DNA from: an uncultured virus (IMG/VR IMGVR_UViG_3300046501_000473)
Lineage: Duplodnaviria > Heunggongvirae > Uroviricota > Caudoviricetes
DNA length: 34,964 nt
Reading direction: 5' to 3' (one strand)
Virus record (IMG/VR): IMGVR_UViG_3300046501_000473
The position numbers and the translations under genes are program-made. The notes beneath the pieces are model-generated. The model did no database searches, was not told the origin of the DNA, and saw only the letters and a program-made list of their open reading frames with translations. This document shows positions 7,388 through 34,849 of this stretch, piece by piece (within the stretch, counting starts at the first letter, position 1; each line of letters opens with the position of its first letter).

Positions 7388-7427
7388 ACTCTAGGGCATC
7401 TTCTATTACGTACGCAATACAAGATGC
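7388..7427 (-). promoter_or_regulatory. promoter P1 (housekeeping-sigma-like) with overlapping palindromic operator
   Basis: Minus strand TTGCGT-N18-TAGAGT; imperfect 32-bp palindrome GCATCTTCTATTACGTACGCAATACAAGATGC; 28 bp identical to 14241-14268. Confidence 0.8.
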
Positions 7428-14231: not shown

Positions 14232-14268
14232 ACCGTAACCCATCTTCTATTACGTACGCAATACAAGA
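14232..14268 (-). promoter_or_regulatory. promoter P2 with overlapping palindromic operator
   Basis: Minus strand TTGCGT-N18-TACGGT; CATCTTCTATTACGTACGCAATACAAGA identical to 7397-7424. Confidence 0.8.
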
Positions 14269-14283
14269 GTGCGAGGGGATGAG

Positions 14284-15828: not shown

Positions 15829-16553
15829 GGGGCGTCTCCGCTCCTCCGGCAGAAGTGGGAAGGGTCCTCGTACGCCCGGTCGGTGTCGGCTCCGCCCGGG
15901 CCCCCCGCACGTCCGGCTGCCAGTCCAGACGCTCGGACTTGTCACTGTGGCATCGATACCAGGCGGTCGGTAAGACACTGCCGGGTATTGACCACCTACT
16001 GACATGCATTCGATACGGTTTTGGCCAGAGGGTGACGGAGAGGCTACATCCAGATACGGGAACAGCCCCTGCGGGCGCCAAATGGTCAGGCACTTCGAGG
16101 GGCCGATCGGTTCCTCCCGGGCATGCCCGTTCGTTGACGGCAGTCTAATCCGGGAACTCCCCACGCAGGTAGATGCGTTCCCCCGGTTTCTGTACGGGCC
16201 GGGTGCCCAGCGCGGCCGGGCCGCCCCCGGAGGGCTGCGATCCACAAGGGGCTGTCCCCGGCCGTGCAGCCGCCGGCCGTGGGGACCGGCAGCACCCCCC
16301 ACCCAAGGCGCATATATGCACTCCGGGAAGGGGCTTGCACAGGGATCACTCAGGTGGGTGACAGATAAACCCCGTCATCCGGCACGTATTCGACCGAATC
16401 TGGTCGGCGCATGACGAGGCCCCGCTCTTTACCTCGCGGGCAAAGTGTTCCCGAGCCATCTCCCTTGCCTGGCAGGCCCGTTCGGGTGGCGCAGGCGGTC
16501 GGGCCGCGCCACGTGCGCCTCACAAAACATGATCGCCTGGTAATTTGCTCGCC

Positions 16554-17699
16554 ATGACCCACCCAGGCGCCGAAGAAGCGCGCGAAAAGTTGCTCGTTAA
16601 CCTGACTCCTGAGCTACGCCGTGACCTGCGCATCAGGGCAGCCGAGCACGGGCTGAACATGCAGGACGCCGTCGCCTCCGCCCTCAGTCTCTGGTACGAC
16701 ACCCCGGGCTCCCCGGACATCGAGACCAGGGGATCGAAGTCGTGGGGCGTGTTCCTTCCCGCTGGGGGCCCGCACCGGTTCGCAAGCGAGTGCGATTCCC
16801 GCAGTCTGACGAAGGTCCAGGGCATGGCCCAGGCCATCACCCTGTGGCTGAAGGCCCACCCATCCCCCGACGAGCGCCTCGTCGCCCAGCCCGTGAAGCG
16901 GATCCTGGTGGGCAACCAGAAGGGTGGTGTCGGCAAGACGTTCGTGGCCTCCGGACTCGCCCAGGCCATGGCGGAGGCCGGCCTGCGCGTTCTCCTCGTC
17001 GACTACGACCCCCAAGGGCACCTCACCAGCCGCCTGCAGATCCCTGGCCTTCCCACCGGGTCCGACAGTCTCCTCACGCACATGCTCGGCGAGGCCGACA
17101 AGCACCTGGCCCGCTCCCTCGTCGCGCTCCCCCACGAACGGTTCGGCGGCCGTCTCCACGTTCTGCCCGCGAGCAAGGACGCCTTCCTGATGGACGCCAA
17201 GCTGGCGCTCCTCCAGGTCGGCCGCGACACCTGCCTGGCCCGCGCGCTCGCCCCCGTCGAGGACTCCTACGACGTCATCGTCCTGGACGGCCCTCCGAAC
17301 CTGGGGCTGGCGATAGACCTCGCCATCAACTACGTCCAGCGTCGCCCGGGCGAGCTGATCGACCACTCCGGAATCCTGATGCCCGTCTGGTCGGACCGTT
17401 CCTCGTTCGACGCCTACGAGATGCTGAACGAGCAGATCGACACCCACAGCCGGATGACCGGAGCGGTCGTCGACCAGCTCGGGTTCGTCGTGAACGCCTA
17501 CGACTCCCGCAAGGGCGTTGTCACCCGCGCCTTCTACGACGGGTGGAGCGAGCTCACCACACCCGGTGTGCTGGCCACCCTGAAGGACGCCATCGAGGGC
17601 CGCGAGGCATCCGACTACCAGATCCCGCTGCTCGAGCACGCCCCTGACTCCGGTCAGGCGCAGGTCATGCGCGCCCTGGCCAAGGAGTTGGCGGCGTGA
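16554..17699 (+). CDS. parA: ParA-family partition ATPase with N-terminal tandem ribbon-helix-helix-like extension
   Basis: Deviant Walker A NQKGGVGKT, LLVDYDPQGHLT, DVIVLDGPPNLG; N-terminal LLVNLTPELRRDLRIRAAEHGLNMQDAVASAL. Confidence 0.93.
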   Translation: MTHPGAEEAREKLLVNLTPELRRDLRIRAAEHGLNMQDAVASALSLWYDTPGSPDIETRGSKSWGVFLPAGGPHRFASECDSRSLTKVQGMAQAITLWLKAHPSPDERLVAQPVKRILVGNQKGGVGKTFVASGLAQAMAEAGLRVLLVDYDPQGHLTSRLQIPGLPTGSDSLLTHMLGEADKHLARSLVALPHERFGGRLHVLPASKDAFLMDAKLALLQVGRDTCLARALAPVEDSYDVIVLDGPPNLGLAIDLAINYVQRRPGELIDHSGILMPVWSDRSSFDAYEMLNEQIDTHSRMTGAVVDQLGFVVNAYDSRKGVVTRAFYDGWSELTTPGVLATLKDAIEGREASDYQIPLLEHAPDSGQAQVMRALAKELAA

Positions 17700-18642: not shown

Positions 18643-18672
18643 CAAGGTGGTGACCACGTGGTCACCACCTTG
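18643..18672. repeat. perfect 30-bp palindrome, candidate parS
   Basis: CAAGGTGGTGACCAC|GTGGTCACCACCTTG just downstream of the par operon. Confidence 0.8.
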
Positions 18673-19082: not shown

Positions 19083-19529
19083 TCAGCCGGTGATCCGAAG
19101 GACGGGTATCCCGGCCTTCTTCGCCCGGCGCATGCAGTCCGCTGTGCCGCTGGAGTTCTGGTACGAGGCGGCCACACACAGAAGGGGGCCCTCGTCGACC
19201 ATCCCCTGGTTGCGGCGGTGTCCGGCGAGGGGGCAGTACTCGAGGCCGCGGCGGTTGATGCGCCGGTGTCCCGGCGGGCAGGTGGGCGCGCAGGGGCCGT
19301 TCCAGTCGGCGGGCCGGCGACGACGGGGAACTTCATGGCGGATGGCCCATGCGTCGCCGATCGTGTCTCCGCCTTCGGCGGTGCCGTGCATCAGCTCGAT
19401 GCCGTCGTAGCCGTCTTGGAGGGCGTCGTGCCACACGTCGAGGAGCGTGTCCTCGAGAAACTGCGGATCGGGCCACTTCCTCGAGCTGGTCAGCAGGATG
19501 AGCGCAAGGTGCGCGGTAGCGGTGTTCAT
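19083..19529 (-). CDS. SLOG-superfamily protein (YspA/DUF2493-like)
   Basis: ILLTSSRKW...LMHGTAEGGDTIGDAWA...PADW...AGHRRNQGMVD...SSGTADCMRRAKKAGIPV. Confidence 0.85.
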   Translation of the reverse strand: MNTATAHLALILLTSSRKWPDPQFLEDTLLDVWHDALQDGYDGIELMHGTAEGGDTIGDAWAIRHEVPRRRRPADWNGPCAPTCPPGHRRINRRGLEYCPLAGHRRNQGMVDEGPLLCVAASYQNSSGTADCMRRAKKAGIPVLRITG

Positions 19530-20317
19530 GCGACGTCGAAGGCGCGGCGTACCGGTGCCGCATCGCTGCCGCCGCGCTTGCGGGCGATCGCGGCCCGGCG
19601 GATCATCTCGGCGCGATCCACGGTCGGGGCGGTGAGCCGCTCGAGCTCGGCGACGGCATCGGTGAACGCGGTCTCCGGTTCCCGGTTGTGGGGGTCGGCC
19701 AGCATCCGGTCTTGGCGCTCGATGGCGTCGACGACGTACGGGTTGGTGGGCTCGCCGTCGGCCTGGGCCGCCTGGTGTGCTTCGAGGGTGCGCCGGTAGC
19801 CGGCCGATGCGGTCTCCCGGGTCCGCACGGGCGCCTCGGGGGCGGCTGACTCCGGTGCCGCGGCCTGCTGTTCTGCCGTGGCGACGTTCCCGACCGGCAG
19901 CACGCGGATCGTCCGGACGACCGGGCGGCCCATCTTGTCGTTGATCTGCTTGGCGAGCTGGCCGCCGAGGAGGCGGAGTTGCGCGGCGTAGGAGTGGCTG
20001 CCCGGGCGGAGGTCCAGGCGGCCGGTGTTCTCGTCGTAGTGGATGGGCTGCACCAAGCCGTCGTACTGCGGGCACAGGGTGGGCCACTGGTCGATGACGC
20101 TGCCGCCGGCGACGCCCGCTTCGAGGTGGATGTCGGCACCGAGACCAGCGATGGCGGAGGCCAGGCTGATGGGGTCGCGGCCGGAGCCGGTACGGGCGGT
20201 GCGCCGCGTCTTGGGTCGGCTCGGGGTGTTGGTGGGTGCGGTTCGGGCGGTGCTCTTGTAGGCGGCGAGGGCCTGCCGGGCGAGGTCCCGGCCGGACAAC
20301 TGCGGAGTGTCGGTCAC
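19526..20317 (-). CDS. dciA: DciA (DUF721) family replicative helicase loader homologue
   Basis: SGRDLARQAL...GRDPISLASAI...GSVIDQWP...PIHYD..GRLDL...SHSYAAQLRLLGGQLAKQINDKMG..VVRTIRVL, matching actinobacterial DciA; extra C-terminal domain. Confidence 0.85.
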   Translation of the reverse strand: MTDTPQLSGRDLARQALAAYKSTARTAPTNTPSRPKTRRTARTGSGRDPISLASAIAGLGADIHLEAGVAGGSVIDQWPTLCPQYDGLVQPIHYDENTGRLDLRPGSHSYAAQLRLLGGQLAKQINDKMGRPVVRTIRVLPVGNVATAEQQAAAPESAAPEAPVRTRETASAGYRRTLEAHQAAQADGEPTNPYVVDAIERQDRMLADPHNREPETAFTDAVAELERLTAPTVDRAEMIRRAAIARKRGGSDAAPVRRAFDVA

Positions 20318-20550
20318 GACTGGCCTCCCAAGAGGGCGCGGGCCACGGTGAGGGCGTGATGGTTGGCCGGGCTTCCGCACCAGGCGCACGGTTCGCGCTC
20401 GGTGTAGAGGTGGGCGGTGCGATCGATCTCCGCTTCGTGCTCCAGCCATTCGGCGACCGGGTCGGCGAGTCCAGCCAGGCGACCGGTGATCTCAGGGGCG
20501 ACATCGCGGAGGGTCTGGGCTGCGGCACGAAGTTCGTCGGCGGGTGCCAT
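20314..20550 (-). CDS. hypothetical protein
   Basis: 78 aa; AGGAG RBS; GTGA-coupled to dciA. Confidence 0.7.
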   Translation of the reverse strand: MAPADELRAAAQTLRDVAPEITGRLAGLADPVAEWLEHEAEIDRTAHLYTEREPCAWCGSPANHHALTVARALLGGQS

Positions 20551-20561
20551 CGGGACTCCTG

Positions 20562-22043
20562 TCAGAAGGCGGGGGTGAGTCGGCGGTCGGCGGCGAGGGC
20601 CTGGTCGACGAGCCAGTTGGTGTACAGGCGGCGGGCGTCCCGCTCGGTCATGCCGTTGGCGAGGGCACTGGTGATCAGCGACAGGTCGGCGGATGCTTCG
20701 GCGCGGACCGCCTTGATCAGTTCGCGGTCCAGGTCCTCGAGTTCGGTGCGGGTGTCCTCAGTGATGTCCCAGCACTCCCCGGCGGGGACCGGGCCCGCGG
20801 CGATCTCCTGGTTGCGGCGGAACGCTTCCCGGACGAGATCCTGCACGCTCACGCTGGCCGGGCGCCGGTCGCCGCCGTGGACTTCGTCGTAGCCGGTGTG
20901 CCGGGCCTGCTCCTGCACGCGGGACTCCTGCCACGCCAGTACGGCGGTCTTGCGGCGCTCGGGGGTGGTGTACAGCAGGTGGAGGTTGCCGAGTCGGTCG
21001 GCGAGCAGCCCGGACGGGCGGCGCACCTGGGCGGCGAGGATCGGGCGTTCCTGCTCTGCGATGGCCTGGACCTCGAGGGCCGTCCACCCGGCATCAGCGG
21101 CGTGGCGGATGATCCAGGCGATCCGGGGGATGGATGCGTCCTTGAGCCACGGCACGAGCTGGATGAGTTCGCGGGCGAGCTGGTAGCGGCGGCCGGTCTT
21201 GTTCAGCTTCTTCGGCCCGCGGTTGGACTTCTTCTGGGTGGGGGACTTCGCTTCCCCGCTTGCGAGCTTGCTCTCAGGGGGGGAGTAAGTGTTAGCCGCA
21301 GAAGAAGACGCTGAGGTACCACCCTCCATTGGGGTGCAACGCGCCCGACCCGAAACAGGGGTCCGACGGGGGCGGCGGCGGGTCTTCCGGGCGGCCTTCT
21401 TCGCGAGCTTCCCGAGCAGGCTCCGGTGCTCCGGGGCGGCCCCGACCGGGCGCCGTTGCACCCCTGCACCGACGGTGCGGATCCCGAGCGCCTCATCGAA
21501 CTCGAGGGGGATGACCCGCTCGAACACGGACGCCTGGTTCGGCTGCGAGGAGAGCCGGGTGCCCTTCACCCGGTACACGAGCAGCCCGGCCTCGCGGAGC
21601 ATCGACAGGTGGTACTGGATGGTGCGCTCCGACGCCTTCAGCTTCCGCATCAGGTAGTCGATCCCGGGCCGGCACTCCTTCAGCGCGGCGATCTCCTGCG
21701 CGATGGCGAGGGTCGTTGCACCCCACCGCGGGCCGTGGCTGCGGGAGGGCGTGTAGAGGCCGCTCCCGGCGACCCAGTGGACGGCTTGCATCCAGGAGTG
21801 GGCGCATGTGGCGATGCGGCCGGTCGTGGCGTGCAGCCACTGGCTAGCTGCGGTCACCAGCAGGCGCGCGCCACGACCGGTCTGACCTGCACTGTAGTCG
21901 TACGCGCGTTCGATTTCGACAGTAGGGGCGTGCGTGTCCGGGGTGGATTCGGTGCACGGGGTGCCACCCGACCGGGGGGAGATTCCTCGCGAATCGCCCA
22001 CGGTGGAGTTGCCAAGCTGACAAGAAGGGGTGCGGTGCTGCAC
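20562..22043 (-). CDS. putative plasmid replication initiator (wHTH-containing Rep)
   Basis: RPGIDYLMRKLKASERTIQYHLSMLREAGLL winged-helix motif; large size; position in an operon with dciA, next to par. Start chosen at GTG 22043 (GAAGGCAGG upstream) is uncertain. Confidence 0.65.
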   Translation of the reverse strand: MQHRTPSCQLGNSTVGDSRGISPRSGGTPCTESTPDTHAPTVEIERAYDYSAGQTGRGARLLVTAASQWLHATTGRIATCAHSWMQAVHWVAGSGLYTPSRSHGPRWGATTLAIAQEIAALKECRPGIDYLMRKLKASERTIQYHLSMLREAGLLVYRVKGTRLSSQPNQASVFERVIPLEFDEALGIRTVGAGVQRRPVGAAPEHRSLLGKLAKKAARKTRRRPRRTPVSGRARCTPMEGGTSASSSAANTYSPPESKLASGEAKSPTQKKSNRGPKKLNKTGRRYQLARELIQLVPWLKDASIPRIAWIIRHAADAGWTALEVQAIAEQERPILAAQVRRPSGLLADRLGNLHLLYTTPERRKTAVLAWQESRVQEQARHTGYDEVHGGDRRPASVSVQDLVREAFRRNQEIAAGPVPAGECWDITEDTRTELEDLDRELIKAVRAEASADLSLITSALANGMTERDARRLYTNWLVDQALAADRRLTPAF

Positions 22044-22080
22044 TATGTACCTGCCTTCGTTGATGGCCTTGCGGGAACGC

Positions 22081-22232
22081 AAAAGCCCTCGGTGGCGGTG
22101 AAGTGGTTCGTGGAGAACCTGTTAGTCCGCTCGCTCGGGTTGGCGCCCGGCGGGCCTTAGATCGGCATTGGCGTGCTGATCCGTGGTACGAGGGCCGCAG
22201 AGGCCCGGAGGTGTTTGGCGCACCAGTCCGGG
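22081..22232. ncRNA. structured RNA (rep leader/antisense RNA candidate) with three TTGGCG loops
   Basis: Outer stem GCCCTCG 22085-22091/CGAGGGC 22189-22195; arm GGTTC/GAACC; TTGGCG loops at 22140, 22168 and 22215, each closing a stem. Confidence 0.7.
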
Positions 22233-25279: not shown

Positions 25280-25777
25280 TTACGCGGCGATGTTCAACCG
25301 GATGAACCAGGTGACCGCCAAGTCAGCGGCCGTGCACGGCTCACACGGGATCTCATGGTGCGCGGTATGCCACTGGTACCCGCTGCGTGTCCCGCACTCG
25401 GGACGCTCGTCAGCGGTGGCGTGGACGCGGCGAGGCGAGTGGTAGCGGTTGCTCTTCGCTGCCTGGCGCGCCACGTCGACCTTCGGTGCAGAACGCCGCG
25501 GCTTGGCTACAGCCTTCCGGCGCGACCGGCGCGGCATCTGGCCGTTCTGAACGATGTACCGCTCCCGGCCATCCAAGCCCCCGCGGATCCCCTCACGGTC
25601 CGACGGCCGCAACCTCTTCTCATCCACCAGAGTGGCGGACAAACATGCCTCCCGGACAGGACAACGGGCACACACGGCCCGCGCCCGATCCGCCTGGCCC
25701 ACATCCCCCTTGGCCGGGTAGAACAGCGCCTGGTCCAGGTTCCGGCACGCGGCCCGCTCCTCCCACCCGGCGGACAT
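25280..25777 (-). CDS. WhiB-family regulator with C-terminal Cys/His domain
   Basis: WEERAACRNLDQALFYP...ARAVCARCPVREACL...GIRGGLDGRER; C-terminal CGTRSGYQWH..HHEIPCEPC. Confidence 0.9.
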   Translation of the reverse strand: MSAGWEERAACRNLDQALFYPAKGDVGQADRARAVCARCPVREACLSATLVDEKRLRPSDREGIRGGLDGRERYIVQNGQMPRRSRRKAVAKPRRSAPKVDVARQAAKSNRYHSPRRVHATADERPECGTRSGYQWHTAHHEIPCEPCTAADLAVTWFIRLNIAA

Positions 25778-26979
25778 CAGGCGGCCTGCCCTTCACCGGC
25801 GTTGGCCTGGGCAGCCTGCTCCTCGAGCGCCTTGATGCGCATGGCCAGGACGTCCTTGATCATGAGGTGGTCGTTGTCGAACGGGATGACCGTGGTCAGC
25901 AGACCCTTCTGCTTCGCCTCAGCCAGCGCCATCCTCGTCGGGCCCAGTTCCTTCCACCCGTTCCGCATCCGGCGCACGAAGCCGTCCACGACGTCCTCGC
26001 CCTCTGCTGAGGCCAGTTCCGCCGCGCGACGTCCCAGGTAGGCGGCCAGCACGTCCGGCTGACCGGAGTCCGGCGCCACAACCCCAGAGTTCCCGAAGTC
26101 CTGCGCCTCCGCAGTGGTGCGCAGGCTCTCCACAGCCTCCCGGGACTCAGCCAGAGCAGCCTGGTTTGCGAAGTCCTGACCGTCCGGGTGCGGCTGGAAC
26201 GACTCCGGATCAACAAACACGGTCCCCGAACCGGTCTCAGCAGCAACCTGCGCGGCCACCGCCGGCGCCTCAGCGGCCTTCCGCTGCTCCCGCTCCGCGG
26301 CCTCCGCCTTCAACGACCTGCCACGCGCCACGATCAGATCCCCGAGGGCCATCTCCTCGCCGCCCGGGGCGTACACGGTCGCCTGCAGCAGACCGTCCGC
26401 CTTCGCCTCCGCGTGCATCGCCAGCAGCGCCGTCGGGTTGTTCCACACCGCAGGCTTCCGCAGCCGTTCCATGTAGACGTCCGCCGGCGAGCGCTGCCCC
26501 TCCGGGTGGTCACGATCCCCGTCATCCAGCGACTTCGAATCCACCGGGATCATGAACGTGTGGATCAGCGCGTACTTCAACGCCGCCGACATCGCCTTGT
26601 TGGACGCCTTGTCCGCGAAGTCCGACCCCTCGCCCATGGTGACGGCGGTGACCTTGTCGCCGTTCGGGCCGTGGAAGTGGAACGCGATCCGCATCAGCAC
26701 CGCATTCTGCCTGCCCCGCACCTCCGTCTTGAAGTCAAGGACCTCCGGGGTCATGACGACACCGTGGTCCCGCAGCGGCTGCGCCAGGGCGCCGATCGCG
26801 TCGTCCACGCCCCGGAACCTGTAGTTCTGCGACTCGTTCGTCCCGTTCTTGCCGATGTTGCGGACGTCCCGCATCACACGGGCCATCAGCTCGTAGACGT
26901 TCGGGGCGTCCTGGTTTTGGGTGTGCTGGGTGGGGCCCTCCGCCGTCGTGCTGGCGGGGGCCTCGGTGGCCGTGGCCAT
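25777..26979 (-). CDS. ERF-family single-strand annealing recombinase with long C-terminal extension
   Basis: IGKNGTNESQNYRFRGVDDAIGALAQPLRDHGV...GEGSDFADKASNKAMSAALKYALIHTFMIP. Confidence 0.9.
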   Translation of the reverse strand: MATATEAPASTTAEGPTQHTQNQDAPNVYELMARVMRDVRNIGKNGTNESQNYRFRGVDDAIGALAQPLRDHGVVMTPEVLDFKTEVRGRQNAVLMRIAFHFHGPNGDKVTAVTMGEGSDFADKASNKAMSAALKYALIHTFMIPVDSKSLDDGDRDHPEGQRSPADVYMERLRKPAVWNNPTALLAMHAEAKADGLLQATVYAPGGEEMALGDLIVARGRSLKAEAAEREQRKAAEAPAVAAQVAAETGSGTVFVDPESFQPHPDGQDFANQAALAESREAVESLRTTAEAQDFGNSGVVAPDSGQPDVLAAYLGRRAAELASAEGEDVVDGFVRRMRNGWKELGPTRMALAEAKQKGLLTTVIPFDNDHLMIKDVLAMRIKALEEQAAQANAGEGQAA

Positions 26980-27741: not shown

Positions 27742-27777
27742 CTTGTATTGCGCGCGCAATAGATAGATGGGTAAGGT
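27742..27777 (+). promoter_or_regulatory. promoter P3 with overlapping palindromic operator
   Basis: TTGCGC-N18-TAAGGT; perfect palindrome TATTGCGCGCGCAATA (27746-27761); flanks match P1/P2. Confidence 0.8.
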
Positions 27778-27808
27778 GAGACCACACCACAGCGAGGGGG
27801 ACCCCACC

Positions 27809-28258
27809 ATGAAGCACACCAAGAACCAGGACCGGGTCAAGACCCTCGCCGACCTCTACCGAGCCCTCGCCCGCCAGGAGGCCGTAACGATCACCTACCT
27901 GAAGCCCGGCGAGACCGAGCCCACCATTCGCACCATCGAGATCATCGAACTGCGCACCAGCAGCGTGAAGATCTCCAAGACCGGCGAGGTCGAGGGCGGC
28001 GACATCTACGTCATCGCCATGTGCCGTCTTCGGGGCCAGGCAAGGGAATTCGCGTCGTCCGGCATCATCAGCTACACGCTCCACCGCGTGGCGTACGTCC
28101 TGGAGCGTCCCGCCAACACCACCTACCAGACCCCCGAGCCCCAGCCGGCCGACGACGCGGACGCCTTGTTCTTCTACGAGCTGGCCCGCGATCAGGACGA
28201 CGCCGACTACCGGCCGCGCCGCAAGCTCGCTCAGACCGACACCGACCTCGCCGCATAA
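27809..28258 (+). CDS. stand-alone WYL-domain protein
   Basis: LYRALARQEAVTITYLKPGE..TIRTIE...YVIAMCRLRGQAREF...I; GAGGGGG RBS. Confidence 0.8.
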   Translation: MKHTKNQDRVKTLADLYRALARQEAVTITYLKPGETEPTIRTIEIIELRTSSVKISKTGEVEGGDIYVIAMCRLRGQAREFASSGIISYTLHRVAYVLERPANTTYQTPEPQPADDADALFFYELARDQDDADYRPRRKLAQTDTDLAA

Positions 28259-28267
28259 GGGGCCCTG

Positions 28268-28981
28268 ATGCGTACCCACGCCACCGCACAGCTCATCGGC
28301 GACCGCTCCCACCAGTGCGACGCCACCGCCACCTACACCCACAACGGCATCCACGCCTACGCGCTTTTGGACGGCATCGGCTCCACCGACGAGATCCGCG
28401 ACTGGACCCGCACCGCCGCCCGCCGTCTGGCCCGCACCGCCGCCGTCCACGCCGACGCCGAGGCCGGCCTGCGCGCCGTGTACACCCGGTACGCCGCCGA
28501 ACCCGACCGGCAGGACCCGTACAACCGGCTACCGACAGCGTGCGCCGTCATCGCCGTCCACGCCCCCGGGAAGCCGCTCACGGTCGCCTGGTGCGGCGAC
28601 GCCCGCGCCTACGTCCTCACCACCAGCGGCACCACGCTGCGGCTCACCGAAGACCACAACCTGCGGCGCGTCTGGCCGCCTCACGGCAACCGCAACCGGA
28701 TCACGTCGTGGCTGGGTTCGGAGCTGACGGACCAGCAGGTGAAGAGCGAAGTCGGGCACCCGGCGATCGAGACCGCGATCCGACACCCGGTCCGTGAGCG
28801 TCTCCTCCTCGCCTCCGACGGCGCCTACGAGCCGCTCGAAGACAACGGGCTCACCCTGTCCGACTACCTCACCGGCACCCCCGCAGAAGCCGCCCGCCGC
28901 TTCACCGAGTCCGCCATCGCCTTCGCCGGTGAGTACGCGGACAACGCCACCGTCCTCATAGCCGACCTGGCGCACGCATGA
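28268..28981 (+). CDS. PP2C/PPM-family protein phosphatase
   Basis: GDRSHQCDA, ALLDGIG, AWCGDARAY, LTEDHN, ITSWLG, LLLASDG, DNATV. Confidence 0.9.
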   Translation: MRTHATAQLIGDRSHQCDATATYTHNGIHAYALLDGIGSTDEIRDWTRTAARRLARTAAVHADAEAGLRAVYTRYAAEPDRQDPYNRLPTACAVIAVHAPGKPLTVAWCGDARAYVLTTSGTTLRLTEDHNLRRVWPPHGNRNRITSWLGSELTDQQVKSEVGHPAIETAIRHPVRERLLLASDGAYEPLEDNGLTLSDYLTGTPAEAARRFTESAIAFAGEYADNATVLIADLAHA

Positions 28982-28984
28982 CGA

Positions 28985-29015
28985 AGGCCACCGACCCGAA
29001 CCGGGTGGGTGGCCT
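28985..29015 (+). terminator. terminator-like hairpin after the PP2C gene
   Basis: AGGCCACC-G-ACCC-loop-GGGT-G-GGTGGCCT. Confidence 0.6.
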
Positions 29016-29322
29016 GAGATCCACGAATGGCGCAAGCGCAGCTTAGCCGAACATCTCCCCATGCTGGTAGAGGCGTTGAGCAACTTCTGCACCACCCCGG
29101 CCCGCTCCCCGGAAAACGTCCGGGTTGTCAGCGGCCACCACTAGACTTCCGATCCAGCGGCACGACGCGTACGCCGCCAGCCGAACACCCCACCGTCGCA
29201 CCCACGCTGCGACACCGGGCAGGCGAAGGTCTCACGGGGCCCGCGAAGAGCAGCACCTTCCTGTCACGGCACCCCTCTGTGCGGCGGAAGGCGTGGGCAC
29301 CGCCGAGAACCGGAGACTCACC

Positions 29323-29700
29323 GTGCCGAAGAAGCAGTCGACCGCCGCGAAGAAGGCCCGCGCCGCCCAGCGCTTGGCCGGCGGCAAGCACACCGCCCTG
29401 CTGGCCGCGCAGGTGTGCGGCGAGCGCTTGGACCCGTTCCTTGAGTTCCCTGAGACCTGCGCCCGGGCGCCGCACTCCCCGTGGGAACCGCACTCCGAGG
29501 ACCGGGACTTCGACGTCGCCGCGTGGCGGGAGAAGGTGGCCGCCGAGCAGGCGGCGGAGGAAGCCCGTCGGGCCGCCCTCACTGACGAAGAGCGCGCCGA
29601 GGAGGATGAGCGGGCCCGGGAGTGGGAGTACGACGAGATGCGGGCGGCCGCAGCCGCCGAGTACCCGAACGACGAGAAGTACTATGGCGACGAGGACTGA
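29323..29700 (+). CDS. hypothetical protein
   Basis: VPKKQSTAAKKARAAQRLAGGKHTALL...; GGAGA RBS; high GC3. Confidence 0.7.
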   Translation: MPKKQSTAAKKARAAQRLAGGKHTALLAAQVCGERLDPFLEFPETCARAPHSPWEPHSEDRDFDVAAWREKVAAEQAAEEARRAALTDEERAEEDERAREWEYDEMRAAAAAEYPNDEKYYGDED

Positions 29701-29702
29701 CC

Positions 29703-29924
29703 GTGCCCAACACCCGCAACGTCGAAGAGATCGCCCGCGCCTCCGGATACGAGAAGCACGGCACCACCTTCCTGGGCGGCAGCTTCGCCACGTGTATCTG
29801 CCCGAAGGAGGGGTGCGGCGGGGTCGCGTCGGCCGCCGAGCGGGCGGACTGCCCCGAGCACCGTCGGACGCCGGCGCAGTTGTGGCACTGGGCTGCGGAA
29901 TGCCCGGGAGGCGCCGCCGTCTGA
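29703..29924 (+). CDS. small Cys/His-rich protein
   Basis: VPNTRNVEEI...CICPKEGCGG...CPEH...HWAAEC; GAGGA RBS. Confidence 0.65.
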   Translation: MPNTRNVEEIARASGYEKHGTTFLGGSFATCICPKEGCGGVASAAERADCPEHRRTPAQLWHWAAECPGGAAV

Positions 29925-30187
29925 GCGTGCCTGCGGGCCCGGCTGGTGGAGAGCGCGGGCCCGCGGCGGGGGCGGGAGCGCAATCAAGGGGGTACTCGCT
30001 GCGACCGCCGTCCGGGCACCGTACGTCCCCCAGTCCCCGTGAGGGAACACCCCGGACGTGCGGAACTCCGCCGGCTGACGCGCGGCGAGGGGAGCCGGGG
30101 GAACGTCCCGCCGCATCCGGCATAGGTTGCTGTCACGGCCCCCGGGCACCGCCCCCGGATCCCGCCGATACCGCATCTGACCTGCAT

Positions 30188-30307
30188 GATTACAAAACTT
30201 CGGCCCCCACCCTCCAACCCGCACACGCGCGCCGCCCACCCCGCACATCCCCGGGACCCGCACCACAACCAGCACCTGGGCTGAGGCAGCTCAGAAGTTT
30301 TGTAATC
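30188..30307. repeat. perfect 14-bp AT-rich inverted repeat with 92-bp spacer
   Basis: GATTACAAAACTTC (30188-30201) / GAAGTTTTGTAATC (30294-30307). Confidence 0.9.
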
Positions 30308-30341
30308 GATCACCCGGGGGTTTTCGGGCAGGATAGGGGGC

Positions 30342-31205
30342 ATGGACCCCGAGGAACTGCTCAACGACTGGCTCGCCACCAGCGCCCTGCGGCCCTCCAC
30401 CCGCGCCGAATACCACCGCGAAGTCTCGAGCTTCCTCACCTGGTGCGCCCGCCGGCCCCGGCCCGTCGACCCCATCGCGGCCCGCCCCGCCGACATCGCC
30501 CAGTGGTCCCACGACACCTACCTCCGCGAACTCCTCGACGGCCGGCCCTTCGACGGACCCGACGCCCTCGGCTACCTCGCCGACCACCACCCCGACGCCG
30601 CCCGCACCCACGACCGCCGCATCACCGCCCTCACCGGCTACTACGACGCCGCCACCGCCCGCCGGATCATCACCATCCCCCCCGACCTGAAAGTCCTGCG
30701 CTCCGGCGTCCCCCGCCCGCCCGGCGCCAAGAACCGGTTGACGCCCCGCGAACGCGCCGTCCTCCTCGCCTGCACCGGCGCCTGGGGACCCACCCGCTCC
30801 AAGCACTGGGAACGCGACCAGCTCTGCGTCTACCTGCTCCTCGAGGGCCTGCGCCCGGCGCAGATCGTCCGCATCGACCGACGCCACCTCTACCCCCAAC
30901 CCGACGGATCCTGGGACGTCCGCGCCCCCGACGACGCAGAGAACGTCGGCAAGAAATTCACCCTGGACCCGCTCACCGGCGCGGCCTTGAAGGCCTACCT
31001 GGCCGTACGCCCAGAGCCAGCCGACCCCAGCGAGCACACCCTCATCCTCTCCAGCCGAGGCACCGCCACCTTCTCCCGCTGGCCCAACAAGCTGATAGGG
31101 CAGATCGTCGCCACCCACCCGCTGCTCGCCGAACGCGACCCGGCCATCACCGCCGATGCCGTCGCCCACACCGGCCTGTGGGACACCCCCGGACAGGGCG
31201 ACTAG
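30342..31205 (+). CDS. tyrosine-recombinase-like protein, predicted catalytically inactive
   Basis: Core-binding domain LRPSTRAEYHREVSSFLTWC; box I RDQLCVYLLLEGLRPAQI; box II degenerate (ITADAVAHT); protein ends before any LGH/Tyr segment. Confidence 0.8.
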   Translation: MDPEELLNDWLATSALRPSTRAEYHREVSSFLTWCARRPRPVDPIAARPADIAQWSHDTYLRELLDGRPFDGPDALGYLADHHPDAARTHDRRITALTGYYDAATARRIITIPPDLKVLRSGVPRPPGAKNRLTPRERAVLLACTGAWGPTRSKHWERDQLCVYLLLEGLRPAQIVRIDRRHLYPQPDGSWDVRAPDDAENVGKKFTLDPLTGAALKAYLAVRPEPADPSEHTLILSSRGTATFSRWPNKLIGQIVATHPLLAERDPAITADAVAHTGLWDTPGQGD

Positions 31206-31512
31206 ACCGCGCGCGCCGACTTCGCAGCCCTCCAGCAGCGCGACCACAGCCCCAAGTAGTTACTCAGCGCTACACGCCACCTGGCGGTAGCTATACGAGA
31301 ACAGGGCCATCACCACCGGCGCGAAGAAGGGACAGCACCCCTCGCCCGCCACCGTCATGAGGATGCTGCGCGAACACGACGAGCAGACGACCTAAGCACT
31401 CAAGATCATCCCGTTGCCCCTTTGACGCGTATCTCGGTCACACCCCGACTAGGGGCTCGCCGTGAAGCGGTCGACGAGGCGGTCGTACACGGCGACGGCG
31501 GCCGCATGCCAG

Positions 31513-32133
31513 TCATGCCGCGTACTCGGGGGTCCAGAAGCTGTTCATGTGGGCGACCTTGTGGGTGAGGGTGGCGAAGAAGAACAGCCAGACGTCTTCG
31601 GACCCGTAGGGCCAGCGGGCAACGATGCCGCTCTCCCAGAGGTGTTGGAGGGTGCGGGAGGCGTGGGTGTGTCCGATCTCCAGTGGGGCCTCGCTGGCCC
31701 ACTCGCAAAGTGGCTGCTCCACCTCGTTGCCGTGCCCGTCGTCCCACAGCATGACGGCGTCCTGGGGCCAGGACAGGGTTCCATCGCCCTCGTGGCTGAC
31801 ACCGGGGTAGACCTCGGCGGTGAACTCTGGCGGCAGGCCGTTGTTCAGCTTGTCCTGGTTTCGGTCGCGGGCCCGGTCGCGGCTGGGGTCTTCGCCTACC
31901 GGGATACGCACCTTGGTGACGTTGCCGATGGCGACGAGGTGGTGGACCTTGGCGTAGGAGACGACTTGTCCGTCGCTCCATTCTCCGTAGGGCTGCGCGA
32001 TGGCGTCGGTGTAGTCGCCCCCGGCGGGGTCCTCGATCATGTCTCGGTATCGGGCGATGAGGAGGCGGCCCTGCTCGGTCTTGCGGATCTCGCGCGCGTG
32101 GTTGTCGGCGACGCGGGCGTGGATGGTTGTCAC
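31513..32133 (-). CDS. hypothetical protein co-transcribed with the recombinase
   Basis: GTG 32133 overlaps the recombinase stop (GTGA); VTTIHARVADNHARE... Confidence 0.7.
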   Translation of the reverse strand: MTTIHARVADNHAREIRKTEQGRLLIARYRDMIEDPAGGDYTDAIAQPYGEWSDGQVVSYAKVHHLVAIGNVTKVRIPVGEDPSRDRARDRNQDKLNNGLPPEFTAEVYPGVSHEGDGTLSWPQDAVMLWDDGHGNEVEQPLCEWASEAPLEIGHTHASRTLQHLWESGIVARWPYGSEDVWLFFFATLTHKVAHMNSFWTPEYAA

Positions 32134-33158
32134 AGGCCGATTCCAATCAGTGCGTTGTCCTGCTCGTCCCACTGGTCGACGATCTGCATGTAGCCGTCCA
32201 GGACCTTCGAGCCGTCCGCGTGTCCGGTCACCGCGGCGATGGCTTTGCGGTCCTTCCCGGCACGGCGTGCCTCGGTGGCCATGCCGGAGCGCACGGAGTG
32301 CCCCGTGAAGAGTTCCTCGAATCCGGCTCGCAGTCCGGCCGCGGTGATGAGGTCGCCGGCGCGCTGCGGGGTGAGGCCCTGGGGCTGTACGGAGCCGGTG
32401 TGGTGGATACGGCGGAAGGCGTGCCGGTCCGGGTCGGCAATCTGGGCGGCGTCCCGCCAGGCCTTCCACGCGCGGACGGGACACGTCACAGCGTGCTGTC
32501 CGTAGGGGACGGCGACGGTGCGGGGTTCGGTCTTGGAGACGCGGACGTCGACCAGGAGGCCGTTGTCGTCGTCGCGGATGTTCCGCAGCCGGAGCCCGGC
32601 GAGTTCGGCGCGGCGCGCGGCGATGGAGAACCCGAGCAGGATCATTGCGCGGTCGCGGATGCCGAAGATGTCGGTGTCGCACTTGGCCACGATGAGCCGC
32701 AGGTCGACCAGGCGCATTGCGGGCGCCTTCCCGCGGCCGCGCACGGGCTCCTCTGCCTCGTCTGCCTTCTTCTGGTAGTCCTTCAGCAACTCCCGGGCCG
32801 CCTTGGTGGCTTCGGGGTCGACGATGACGCTGTGCTGCTGCCGCAGGGTGACGGTGACGCCAGCGAGCTTACGGTCGACGGTGGAGTACGCGCGCTTCTC
32901 CCGGTTCCACAGGAAGTCGACGAACGCGCGGAGCGTGCCGCGGGTGGCGGCGGTGGGCGGGATCTGGAGCTGGGTGCAGAACGCGGTCCAGGTCTTCCAG
33001 TCCCCGGCATACGCGCGGGTGGTGTTGTCGGGCCGCTGGTCCTGCGCGTGGGTGTCGCTGGCGGCGTCGAGCGCGGCAAGGCGGGCGCGCAGGGCGTCGT
33101 CGAACTGCTCGGGCAGGAGCGGGCGGTCGGCTGGTCTGGTGGGGAGGTTGTCGTTCAT
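32130..33158 (-). CDS. Cre/Xer-like tyrosine recombinase (probable multimer resolvase)
   Basis: RPDNTTRAYAGDWKTW; RDRAMILLGFSIAARRAEL; VSKT; FTGHSVRSGMAT; TGH...VLDGY (R-K-H-R-H-Y intact). Confidence 0.95.
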   Translation of the reverse strand: MNDNLPTRPADRPLLPEQFDDALRARLAALDAASDTHAQDQRPDNTTRAYAGDWKTWTAFCTQLQIPPTAATRGTLRAFVDFLWNREKRAYSTVDRKLAGVTVTLRQQHSVIVDPEATKAARELLKDYQKKADEAEEPVRGRGKAPAMRLVDLRLIVAKCDTDIFGIRDRAMILLGFSIAARRAELAGLRLRNIRDDDNGLLVDVRVSKTEPRTVAVPYGQHAVTCPVRAWKAWRDAAQIADPDRHAFRRIHHTGSVQPQGLTPQRAGDLITAAGLRAGFEELFTGHSVRSGMATEARRAGKDRKAIAAVTGHADGSKVLDGYMQIVDQWDEQDNALIGIGL

Positions 33159-33168
33159 AGTCCGTCCG

Positions 33169-33462
33169 TCAGACGTGCTTCCACTCGGGCAGGAAGTCGG
33201 GGTGGTCGCTCCATTGACGGGCTGCCATCGTCAGGTAGAAGTGCGGCATGCTCGGGTTGTCGCCGCGCGCGATCTCGGCCTGGGCGGCACCCTTGATGAC
33301 GGTCGCCATGTCGAGGAGGGCCTGGTGGGGCCGTTCTTCGGTGGAGCCGTACGGGATGGCGTCGCGCAGGGGCGTGACGCGGGCCTGGATGAAGTCGAGG
33401 ACCTTGTCGATGTCGTCCATGGTCTTGGCGGGTGGCGGCGTGTAGGCGTCGGCCTGAGTCAT
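33169..33462 (-). CDS. hypothetical protein (possibly leaderless transcript)
   Basis: MTQADAYTPPP...ARQWSDHPDFLPEW; TAGAAT -10 lies 6 nt before ATG 33462. Confidence 0.7.
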   Translation of the reverse strand: MTQADAYTPPPAKTMDDIDKVLDFIQARVTPLRDAIPYGSTEERPHQALLDMATVIKGAAQAEIARGDNPSMPHFYLTMAARQWSDHPDFLPEWKHV

Positions 33463-33483
33463 GGTCACATTCTACCGATCTTC

Positions 33484-33511
33484 CCTGGTGATATGTGAGC
33501 TTATCGCGGGT
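33484..33511. other. candidate dif/lox-like recombination site overlapping the recombinase-operon promoter
   Basis: CCTGGTGATAT-GTGAGC-TTATCGCGGGT: imperfect inverted arms G(T/C)GATA(T/A) around a 6-bp spacer. Confidence 0.45.
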
Positions 33512-33580
33512 CAGACGGCGTGATCCCTGGGGCGGACCCGACGCACCGTCAATCTCCTTGCATTGAACGTAGATAGACGC

Positions 33581-33609
33581 TGGACGAACGTGGGGCGCCT
33601 CGGTACGGT
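33581..33609 (+). promoter_or_regulatory. candidate promoter for the cassette operon
   Basis: TGGACG-N17-TACGGT, followed by GGTCAC as in P2. Confidence 0.5.
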
Positions 33610-33658
33610 GGTCACGCTAGACCGACATTCATTCTCGTCTGTTACTACGGGGAGCCGT

Positions 33659-34075
33659 ATGCGAATCACCGTCACCATCGACCAGCCCACCGGGGACTTC
33701 CAGGAGCGGCTGCTCGCCCTACTCGCGGAGCACGCCGCCGATGTAGAGGAGGACGCCCACTGGACCATCCCGCGTGCGGAGAGCTACTACCGGTCCCTTC
33801 CCGCCCGGGCCCGACGGATCGTCAAGGAGGCCGTCATCCGGGACGGCTACGTGCCCGCCGACGAGCTCCGCGACGACGAGAACACCAGCCTTCGCGGCCA
33901 CAGCGCCGCCCTCAAGCGAGCTCTCCAGCGCGGCTTCATGTTGGGGCGTTGGCCGGAGGGCATGCAGCTGCCCATCGAGCCCCAGGGCCCCGGTTTCGGC
34001 AAGGTCGCTGGGTACCGGATGCCCGCCGACCTCGTGCAGACCTTCTACACCGCCATCAAGAACACCGAGAAGTGA
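33659..34075 (+). CDS. hypothetical protein (cassette 1)
   Basis: MRITVTIDQPTGDF...KNTEK*; GGGGAG RBS. Confidence 0.8.
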   Translation: MRITVTIDQPTGDFQERLLALLAEHAADVEEDAHWTIPRAESYYRSLPARARRIVKEAVIRDGYVPADELRDDENTSLRGHSAALKRALQRGFMLGRWPEGMQLPIEPQGPGFGKVAGYRMPADLVQTFYTAIKNTEK

Positions 34076-34090
34076 GGACACCGACCATGG
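34063..34090 (+). repeat. 28-bp gene-junction direct repeat, copy 1
   Basis: CACCGAGAAGTGAGGACACCGACCATGG (TEK codons + stop + RBS + ATG). Confidence 0.95.
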
Positions 34091-34485
34091 GCTTCGAGAT
34101 CAACCTGCACTTCCCGCACGTGGATTGGACCGTGCAGATGCCCGCCGTGCCACGGAAGGGCGACAGGCTGGAATTCGCGGATCCCGATATCGGCGACACC
34201 AGTTGGGACGTCACGGAAGTCGCGTACACCGTGTACACGGACGGCACCGAAGGATCCATCAACCTCGCCCTGGACCCGGCCGACGAGGACACCAAGAAGC
34301 GGTCTGATCAGTTCGAGGCCGATCGTCTGGACGCCCTCCGCTCCGGCCGGGTGAACGAACTCCGCGAGTCCATCCGGGCCAACCGGCCCGAGCCGCTGGA
34401 CGATGCTCCCCTCCGTGACGCGGTGGCCCGGCAGGACGCAGCCATGCGCGACAACCAGGAACCGGACAGCGCCACCGAGAAGTGA
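34087..34485 (+). CDS. hypothetical protein (cassette 2)
   Basis: MGFEINLHFPHVDW...PAVPRKGDRLEF...SATEK*. Confidence 0.8.
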   Translation: MGFEINLHFPHVDWTVQMPAVPRKGDRLEFADPDIGDTSWDVTEVAYTVYTDGTEGSINLALDPADEDTKKRSDQFEADRLDALRSGRVNELRESIRANRPEPLDDAPLRDAVARQDAAMRDNQEPDSATEK

Positions 34486-34500
34486 GGACACCGACCATGG
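34473..34500 (+). repeat. 28-bp gene-junction direct repeat, copy 2
   Basis: Identical to 34063-34090; a degenerate third copy AAGTAGGGACACCG lies at 34785-34798. Confidence 0.95.
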
Positions 34501-34790
34501 CAGCAACCTTCCAGATCACCAACGACCGTCGCACGATCGACCTTCGAGTCAGCGGCATTCCCGGCATCCAACTTCCCAACGGGCTTGCCGTACTACCGGT
34601 TGGCGTTCGGATCGACTACGACCGAGCCTCCTACGGCGACCACGTGGAAGTCCGTATCGACGGGCGCGACGGCAATGGGCACCTCGACTTTTACAACCTC
34701 GCGGACCCGAAAGCCTGGCCGACGTGGCTGACCGAACTGGTCGACAAGTACCGACTGGCCGAGCCCATTGCGCCGATCGACGACAAGTAG
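34497..34790 (+). CDS. hypothetical protein (cassette 3)
   Basis: MAATFQITNDRRTIDL...WPTWLTELVDKYR...DDK*. Confidence 0.75.
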   Translation: MAATFQITNDRRTIDLRVSGIPGIQLPNGLAVLPVGVRIDYDRASYGDHVEVRIDGRDGNGHLDFYNLADPKAWPTWLTELVDKYRLAEPIAPIDDK

Positions 34791-34849
34791 GGACACCGGG
34801 AACGGCGGTCCGTAGACGACAGCATCATGGAGTAGCAAAGAACTCATGG

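Follow-up and report, generated by a model that had tools for sequence, protein, structure and literature searches.

The window analysed here, that is the whole stretch of 34,964 nucleotides (nt) held as the IMG/VR virus record IMGVR_UViG_3300046501_000473, carries a gene, called A below, for a protein of 287 amino acids (aa) with a tyrosine-recombinase fold that has lost its active site (positions of all features in Table 1). A short inverted-repeat element is located just upstream of its start codon, and a convergent gene, B, for an intact tyrosine recombinase is found downstream. Loss of the catalytic residues goes far back, is shared by the whole family and is maintained by purifying selection, and the inverted-repeat element travels with A independently of the type of recombinase that stands nearby. 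On the sequence data at hand, slightly better than even odds were given to the reading that A is an exapted recombinase-fold protein, which would bind DNA sequence-specifically at the arms beside its own gene and, in doing so, regulate itself. The carrier of A is a Streptomyces phage-plasmid.

Gene A encodes a tyrosine-recombinase fold without its active site

The reading frame of A starts with ATG and runs uninterrupted over its 287 codons, with GC contents of 0.71, 0.53 and 0.92 at the three codon positions. Scans of A against Pfam and NCBIfam gave no match, so that neither PF00589 nor any further domain was detected, and sequence or profile searches against solved structures returned nothing at E<=0.1. 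The PHROG family phrog_1 'integrase' matched A at E 3.8e-5. An AlphaFold2 (AF2) model built on 66 family sequences reached a mean predicted local distance difference test (pLDDT) value of 89.8. It consists of a core-binding domain (approximately residues 1-110), a linker and a catalytic-domain remnant (residues 134-277) that ends after a degenerate HxxR helix.

Structural relatives were identified by a Foldseek search and by Z-scored structure comparison over residues 1-287, which cover the core-binding domain and the catalytic fold. The best match was XerH (Z 16.9, root-mean-square deviation 5.3, 255 residues aligned), followed by XerA (Z 14.9), Tn1549 Int (13.8), XerD (13.4), IntI (13.3), Cre (13.3) and lambda Int (13.2). 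As modelled, A is a tyrosine-recombinase fold whose closest structural counterparts over both domains are the active Xer-type enzymes XerH, XerA and XerD. Every structural alignment ended ahead of the C-terminal part of the partner chain that bears the catalytic tyrosine (Y324 in Cre, Y344 in XerH and Y342 in lambda Int, as numbered in Table 3 of PMC10516654).

The fate of the individual catalytic residues was followed by a profile–profile alignment (hhalign; probability 78.7%, E 1.7e-5, 224 columns) of A with a profile of 17 neighbouring active recombinases. R171 of A, within the motif 'EGLRP' (residues 168-172), aligned with Arg-I, which is R182 in B, and the RD pair at residues 158-159 fell on the RD motif of the active enzymes. 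The beta-hairpin lysine of B and of the active enzymes fell on the invariant D197 of A; K204 and K205, close to the lysine position, vary within the A family, and distant relatives have a KGGG motif. The last helix of the model (residues 271-277) reads TADAVAH, compared with (T)xHxxRH in active enzymes, which puts D272 and A275 in the H and R positions of HxxR. This assignment was made by eye from the 'GHSVRSG' of B and the last helix of the model, as the hhalign alignment stopped at residue 257-261. The chain ends 11 residues past H276, the last residue of 'ADAVAH' (271-276), and holds no sequence counterpart of His/Trp-III or of the tyrosine nucleophile. A therefore keeps Arg-I but is missing four of the six catalytic residues as well as the C-terminal helices, and judging from these losses it is unable to cut DNA. 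These results agree with what the first-pass annotation of the window had read from the letters, namely a protein with the core-binding domain and the box I arginine, with ADAVAH in place of HxxR, with an end before the second histidine and the tyrosine, and with an uninterrupted frame of strong third-position GC content (GC3).

The loss is old and maintained under purifying selection

A word-seeded search returned 222 homologues of A at E<=1e-3, 120 of which were listed; these measure 276-305 aa and are 55-99% identical to A. Contigs of 87-95 kb carry many of the homologues among the matches listed; the names given to them are 'integrase', 'hypothetical protein' or, in occasional cases, 'XerC'. 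An alignment of 66 sequences was made from A and 65 of the 120, picked by us in favour of varied identity levels and long contigs. It contained 49 invariant columns, including R171, T270, A271, D272, A275 and H276, and all 66 members ended within a few residues of 'AHTG.WD' (TAD..AHTG.WD). A profile search of 1.84 billion representatives yielded only 142 matches at E<=1e-3, 24 of them at E<=1e-10. The distant relatives of 254-309 aa that were inspected are all cut at the end point of A, with tails resembling T(A/P)D..A(H/L/Q/M)SPSPF; one of the 142 matches, P0145 (340 aa), is an ordinary active recombinase. No longer relatives of A (504-2000 aa) were found, which by the search tool's own caveat is weak evidence. 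A recent truncation, with full-length close homologues, is contradicted by these data.

Full-length A genes were compared in 19 loci (the window, L002-L014, L016-L019 and L021). Dn/dS ratios by the Nei-Gojobori method (NG86) had a median of 0.92 over 171 pairs and were uninformative because synonymous differences reach a plateau at about 0.25-0.3 when GC3 is above 0.9. Therefore, a codon model with position-specific frequencies was used (GY+F3X4+G4). For the 19 A genes, the nonsynonymous to synonymous rate ratio (omega) was 0.094 at first and 0.050 at the final optimisation, a value that is rough given the length of the tree (19 substitutions per codon site), yet far from neutrality. The same model gave 0.061 and then 0.042 for six B-type genes. 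Of 23 loci, 19 have an uninterrupted frame of A, at identities as low as 50%. Since the common end point, the low omega and the conservation go together, exaptation to a DNA-binding role is the best reading of A. To that extent the initial proposal of an exapted recombinase with a DNA-binding role is supported, also in view of the MrpR and SroF precedents discussed below; the part of it that had A acting with B is unsupported.

An inverted-repeat element travels with gene A

The window element, of 120 base pairs (bp), has its two arms as a perfect inverted repeat, and the arm sequence occurs solely at these two places within the window. On each of three complete elements of 88-93 kb, the arm sequence is likewise unique to the element of the replicon. 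The same layout is present in 18 of the 19 loci with full-length A, the other locus (L011) being cut by a contig end that leaves the proximal arm only; in L017 the element is situated 242 nt upstream of A, or 80 nt from an alternative start. Overall, the element measures 108-141 bp, with perfect arms of 9-22 nt and a gap of 80-101 nt. Three relatives of A with 26-31% identity share the geometry (3/3) but not the arm sequences, which differ completely (arm and gap of 15 and 91 nt, 20 and 101 nt, and 18 and 93 nt). As a control, perfect repeats with arms of at least 11 nt and gaps of 60-130 nt were counted 27 times elsewhere in 391,387 bases of these loci, or about one per 14.5 kb, versus 20 out of 21 at the position of the element. 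A few other inverted repeats, in L016, L044 and the window, come close to this geometry but lack the G-rich core described below and were set aside as unrelated.

The arms differ from lineage to lineage, yet the two of each element change together and stay complementary. Double compensatory changes were found in 11 of the 14 arm pairs, with almost no one-sided changes of the G-U type, and 13 outer pairs covary likewise in the set of 21 sequences. When oriented by its G-rich strand, the interior could be aligned in all 21 loci, in the order arm, GCTGCCTCAGCCC-like, GGGGATGTGCGGGG.GGG..CGCGCG, TGG.GGGTGGGG, arm. In the window this core is on the minus strand and reads GTGCGGGG..GGG..CGCGCG and TGG.GGGTGGGG.

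From the proximal arm to the start codon, members of the A family share T(C/A/T)GATC, 17-18 nt, CAnnAT, about 7 nt and ATG. These two blocks may be read as a -35/-10 pair giving a leaderless or near-leaderless mRNA. In the window, the putative promoter would be made of the -35-like TCGATC (30306-30311), which overlaps the end of the arm, a spacer of 17 nt and the -10-like CAGGAT (30329-30334), 7 nt before the ATG.

A candidate mode of action

A model can be proposed in which one protomer of A binds each 14-bp arm. The arms have the size of a recombinase half-site and are 106 bp apart from start to start, approximately ten helical turns, so that two bound protomers could bridge them, with the conserved G-rich interior looped or wrapped in between. 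The proximal arm lies directly against the -35 region of the putative promoter and overlaps the upstream edge of this promoter, so that bound A would repress its own gene (autoregulation). Protein and element would together make up an accessory unit, complete in itself, that Streptomyces phage-plasmids and other circular plasmids carry whatever active recombinase adjoins; its biological role may lie in the regulation or maintenance of the plasmid prophage.

Several observations weigh against this model. The link between A and the arms is drawn from adjacency and co-variation, both of which shared descent would yield too, and a site unique to its own promoter explains autoregulation but not the purpose of A. 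A consensus scan called no sigma-70-type promoter at A. The interior core exceeds both the arms and the protein in conservation, and it is found in either orientation relative to the gene, one way in 15 loci (the group of the window) and the other way in 6 (L017, L018, L021 and L043-L045); a simple operator model predicts neither. A terminator-like hairpin with a T-run overlaps the right arm, and perfect arms would be expected also from single-stranded pairing or from recombination between the arms. The length of the A tree and the uninformative NG86 ratios, given above, are to be counted here as well.

Recombination between the arms, and pairing of the arms

One alternative takes the arms as recombination sites, so that the interior of 80-101 bp would be an invertible, phase-variable segment or another kind of substrate, flipped by a nearby or host recombinase with A as its reader or regulator. 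Invertible promoters are typically recognised by just such a pattern, a short segment before a gene bounded by perfectly identical inverted arms, and the asymmetric interior does occur in both orientations among lineages (15 versus 6 loci). However, the orientation follows the phylogeny: all 15 loci of the window group are alike, and the six others are the most distant members. In the Logan contigs of four rhizosphere-metagenome runs (X1-X4), records 2, 12, 19 and 25 bridge both arms in the window orientation only and no strand-switch joints were seen, bearing in mind that such contigs drop rare variants. Furthermore, a segment of 80-101 bp is short for inversion, and distant relatives carry the element with no tyrosine recombinase nearby. 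Inversion is thus considered improbable.

The arms could also pair within a single-stranded nucleic acid, either as a long-range RNA stem or as a DNA hairpin such as a single-strand origin, in which case the element would be independent of A. The strong compensatory covariation of the arms is what pairing would leave behind, and the hairpin with its T-run overlapping the right arm points the same way. Against it, RNAalifold detected no covarying inner structure on either strand, the interior of about 90 nt showing no conserved or covarying structure, and there are almost no G-U intermediates among the arm changes. No Rfam match was obtained in 28900-33600 at E<=1. The element is also linked to the gene family down to 26-31% identity, although the arm sequence has been fully replaced over that distance. 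This alternative, too, was given a low probability.

Gene A is tied to the neighbouring recombinase by position

B was confirmed as an intact Cre-like recombinase, as first annotated: it matches PF00589 at 2.5e-13, its catalytic set is complete (R182, K209, H287, R290, H313 and Y323), and Cre chains rank first among solved structures in a profile search (E 4.2e-9), nearly over the full length. The likeness to the Cre/loxP system of P1 thus covers the full catalytic set, the best profile match and a phage-plasmid with a ParA-type gene. Unlike in P1, no lox-type site, with inverted arms of 11-13 bp and a spacer of 6-8 bp, was found near B. A search for lox- or dif-like sites with 11-nt arms and at most one mismatch was negative in 29700-33600, and so was a search with 10-nt arms and at most two mismatches in 31200-31520 and 33100-33700.

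The first-pass annotation had proposed that A and B, with the inverted repeat, a dif-like site and a cassette array, may form a two-component recombination module. On such a reading, A would be an architectural, directionality or regulatory partner of the active enzyme and might, for example, shape the site of that enzyme or accept its C-terminal helix. Co-occurrence speaks for such a partnership as far as position is concerned, since a convergent recombinase gene is found within approximately 4.2 kb downstream of A in 16 of the 19 loci with full-length A. (In L002 and L004 the Pfam PF00589 score of this gene is under the cut-off; tblastn to B served as further evidence for both, as did the record annotation for L002.) Two-recombinase systems with a selector member are also known, active TnsF-like proteins working with YRec in Tsy according to PMC10293859.

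The neighbours, however, belong to at least five non-orthologous types with 17-35% identity to B, and their type does not follow the phylogeny of A: in L019, A is 59% and the recombinase 89% identical to its window counterpart, whereas in L002 and L004 the values are 77% and about 30%. Nucleotide homology with the window breaks off at 31174-31211 in 20 of the 22 loci, around the stop of A at 31205, the exceptions being L009 (31135) and L022 (30662), and it resumes at 32108-32130, the 3' end of B, solely in B-type loci. Contigs from metagenomes diverge from the window at 31191-31214. The plasmid pZL12, for which we rely on the GenBank annotation and the pSLE1 paper, carries a B orthologue (79% amino-acid identity) and no A. 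Conversely, L016, L017 and L021 have a full-length A with no adjacent recombinase, and the three distant relatives inspected (26-31% identity; L043-L045, on circular plasmids of 59-134 kb) have no tyrosine-recombinase neighbour. The inverted repeat tracks A and not the recombinase type. A prediction of the A–B complex scored 0.00 in two runs with controls not run and is not evidence either way.

A would thus be a backbone gene that precedes a swappable recombinase slot. Such slots are usual for phage integration modules. Sequence comparison ties A to the active recombinase by position only, and a dedicated partnership is not supported; we regard it as unlikely. The proposed module loses its other parts as well. 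Its inverted repeat goes with A, as said, and its dif-like site, the palindrome at 7396-7427, is one copy of a dispersed repeat that occurs regardless of recombinase type. As to the cassette array, a junction of 28 nt (gene end, stop, GAGGA, start codon) was found between consecutive small genes at 34063-34090, 34473-34500 and 34778-34805, with two identical copies. These are probably what had been called the array, and they look like repeated translational-coupling junctions rather than integron cassettes.

Comparison with known inactive recombinases

The repressors MrpR (YopR) of SPbeta and SroF of phi3T are the closest precedents for A, combining a core-binding domain and a catalytic fold without recombinase activity in temperate phages. 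They are monomeric and bind sites of 15-26 bp (PMC10516654; bioRxiv 10.1101/2025.11.27.690993); DNA binding by A is predicted. The model of A matches their structures with Z 11.9 (9rd5_H) and 10.2 (8a0a_A). No sequence similarity to A was detected by PDB sequence and profile searches at E<=0.1, both 8a0a and 9rd5 being part of the structure library. They are of full length (about 320 aa), whereas A is cut off after the HxxR helix. MrpR keeps the lysine and the tyrosine and has lost Arg-I (Table 3 of PMC10516654), while A keeps Arg-I and lacks H, R, H and Y. The binding sites of MrpR, the SPBREs, are dispersed and number about ten, whereas the candidate site of A is one pair of inverted arms next to its own gene, with about 90 bp between them. 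A does not belong to the MrpR/SroF family.

A could nevertheless be a master prophage repressor of the phage-plasmid that works, like these two, on dispersed operators. In favour of this alternative are the resemblance of the fold and the place of A at the end of a rightward gene group with WYL and PP2C genes, opposite leftward early genes (Erf and others). In addition, an AT-rich palindrome of about 30 bp with lox-like geometry, CATCTTCTATTACGYRCGCAATASAAGATG, is dispersed on A-bearing elements. It occurs at 7396-7427, 14240-14271 and 27742-27765 of the window (3 copies versus 0 expected in shuffled sequences) and at least four times on each of three related complete A-bearing elements, whatever their recombinase type, and it is absent from pZL12, which lacks A. 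The copy at 7396-7427 had been considered as a lox-type site of B and was rejected, since the repeat to which it belongs is dispersed and also occurs on an element whose recombinase is of another type. On the other side, the arm motif of A itself is not dispersed: on the three complete elements and the window it was found nowhere but at its own gene. The palindrome is detectable in one of the 13 A-bearing PLSDB plasmids (NZ_CP109440.1, the only PLSDB plasmid in which it was found) and in few of the other loci. One copy, at 27742, lies at the divergent promoter at the start of the WYL-domain gene, which makes another regulator the simpler candidate; the palindromes are probably the operator set of the prophage regulator of a subgroup. 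Finally, the Erf protein led to 11 related plasmids of 85-102 kb, and just 2 of these belong to the 13 that bear A, which is missing from the other 9 and from pZL12. A master repressor is a still less probable role for A than the alternatives above.

That A might be the decaying pseudogene of a recently truncated integrase, as its missing C-terminal third of the catalytic domain and the degraded copies in L015, L020 (beside a Mutator transposase), L022 and L023 could suggest, is already contradicted by the conservation data and has next to no chance of being true, given the identical end point in 66/66 aligned members and in the distant relatives of 254-309 aa, an omega of about 0.05, the intact frame in 19 of 23 loci down to 50% identity, and the 11 small open reading frames after A in other loci, none of which matches PF00589 or otherwise carries the missing part as a split gene would. 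The degraded copies illustrate how decay, where it occurs, presents itself in this family.

TnsF of Tn6022-like Tn7 transposons offers another parallel: in these mobile elements an inactivated recombinase domain serves to recognise DNA, and active relatives of TnsF operate next to a second recombinase (PMC10293859). TnsF differs from A by its N-terminal zinc fingers and the Tn7 machinery, as A has no further Pfam domain and no transposase among the genes examined around it. No description of the Streptomyces family of A was found in the literature, of which subscription journals are largely outside the coverage; otherwise, the literature gives recombinase-fold repressors in Bacillus phages, TnsF in Tn7-like elements and eukaryotic domestications.

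Fusions to an endonuclease domain

In three relatives of A (P0138, P0143 and P0149; 458-473 aa), the same degenerate ending is followed by an Endonuclease_7 domain at the C terminus (PF02945 at 1e-5, 2.3e-9 and 4.9e-14). This domain is of the HNH type. In the single fusion locus examined, on NZ_CP109498.1 (L045, 5001-6377), the inverted-repeat element is located 17 nt before the start of the fusion gene. The fusions fit a DNA-targeting role of the recombinase-fold part, which would be a DNA-addressing module.

The replicon and the genes around A

Table 1. Features of the window discussed in the text, with positions counted from its first nucleotide.
Feature	Position	Strand	Basis or remark
Gene A, truncated and catalytically inactive tyrosine-recombinase-fold protein, 287 aa	30342..31205	+	Sequence, family alignment, AF2 model, structure comparison, codon model
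Distal (left) arm, GATTACAAAACTTC	30188..30201	.	Perfect inverted repeat
Interior of the element, 92 nt	30202..30293	.	C-rich on + strand; conserved core on - strand
Proximal (right) arm, GAAGTTTTGTAATC, complement of the left arm	30294..30307	.	Ends 34 nt before the ATG of A
Putative promoter of A	30306..30334	+	Conserved blocks, our own reading
Breakpoint and foreign DNA after the stop of A	31188..31450	.	End of homology, plasmid matches
Gene C, 206 aa, no Pfam or PHROG family	31513..32133	-	GTG start overlaps the stop of B (GTGA)
Gene B, intact Cre-like tyrosine recombinase, 342 aa; positional neighbour of A	32130..33158	-	PF00589, catalytic set, profile match
ParA-type ATPase	16545..17699		
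DciA-domain protein	19526..20449		
Erf-like protein	25777..26979		

The window has a GC content of 0.65-0.73, and no tRNA or transfer-messenger RNA (tmRNA) gene was found in it. Its closest complete relative is NZ_CP109440.1, a circular element of 87,853 bp whose genes are locally ordered as in the window (ERF, WYL-domain gene, PP2C, two small genes, A homologue, convergent integrase) and which additionally encodes ParA, a DciA-family gene, and phage lysis and tail genes. Among the matches listed, DNA near-identical to the window was found in 24 runs from 22 studies of rhizosphere, soil and root metagenomes. The nearest virus record available (G001; 65.6 kb, 82% complete) contains neither A nor the arm motif.

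The 924 nt between A and B are not empty, as they contain gene C and DNA common to many plasmids. Gene C is translationally coupled to B through the GTGA overlap. Homologues of C with 30-32% identity directly follow B-type recombinases in L003 and L019, and a further one in L007 has beside it a stretch that tblastn matches weakly to B (26% identity, E 8.6e-10). The place of C is taken in pZL12 by an EndoVII-like gene (pZL12.35c). The segment behind the stop of A matches 95 plasmid records in 137 places, often in or beside genes annotated 'recombinase family protein', and resembles what another mobile element would leave behind at a recombination breakpoint. A 32-aa open frame in it (31297-31392) gave no Pfam match.

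Further observations were made on the rest of the window. The rightward gene group whose last member is A opens with a conserved pair, the WYL-domain protein (163 aa) and the PP2C-type phosphatase (237 aa) encoded at 27767-28981, which NZ_CP109440.1 has as well. A candidate for a partition (centromere-like) site is a perfect palindrome of 30 bp at 18643-18672, with 12-nt arms around CACGTG, situated 24 nt past the 307-aa gene that follows the ParA-type ATPase. A second conserved inverted repeat, with arms of 11-12 nt and a gap of 111-113 nt, was found at 21331-21464 and in similar places in L003, L004, L007, L013, L017 and L019. In the window it falls inside a 506-aa open reading frame (20562..22082) adjoining the DciA-domain gene, and it may be a replication-related site.

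Implications for the family

Genes of the A family are annotated 'integrase', 'site-specific integrase' or 'XerC' in public records, and such annotations can therefore overstate the capacity for integration. The paper on pSLE1 (of S. leeuwenhoekii) counted two putative integrases, with no identification given there, and suggested chromosomal integration as possible; one pSLE1 gene annotated 'site-specific integrase' (H22) is a homologue of A, and pSAM1 of S. ambofaciens carries a homologue as well.

A may belong to an undescribed actinobacterial superfamily of truncated recombinase-fold proteins, each paired with an element of 108-141 bp, that would serve as a portable 'address plus reader' marking, and in the fused forms cutting, one unique place on a plasmid. 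We put this forward tentatively, as a possibility that has the odds against it. If true, it would represent a new kind of maintenance, initiation or exclusion system of plasmids and phage-plasmids, beyond a transcription factor.

Few cases of inactivated tyrosine recombinases serving as DNA readers are known, namely the SPbeta and phi3T repressors, TnsF, yeast Ndc10 and Crypton-derived genes. A would add to them a large and cleanly delimited bacterial family. The family is distinctive by another way of being dead, with truncation after the HxxR helix and Arg-I kept, and by its natural nuclease fusions. It also has a candidate DNA site whose arms change alongside the protein, which would provide a natural specificity series for DNA reading by the recombinase fold.

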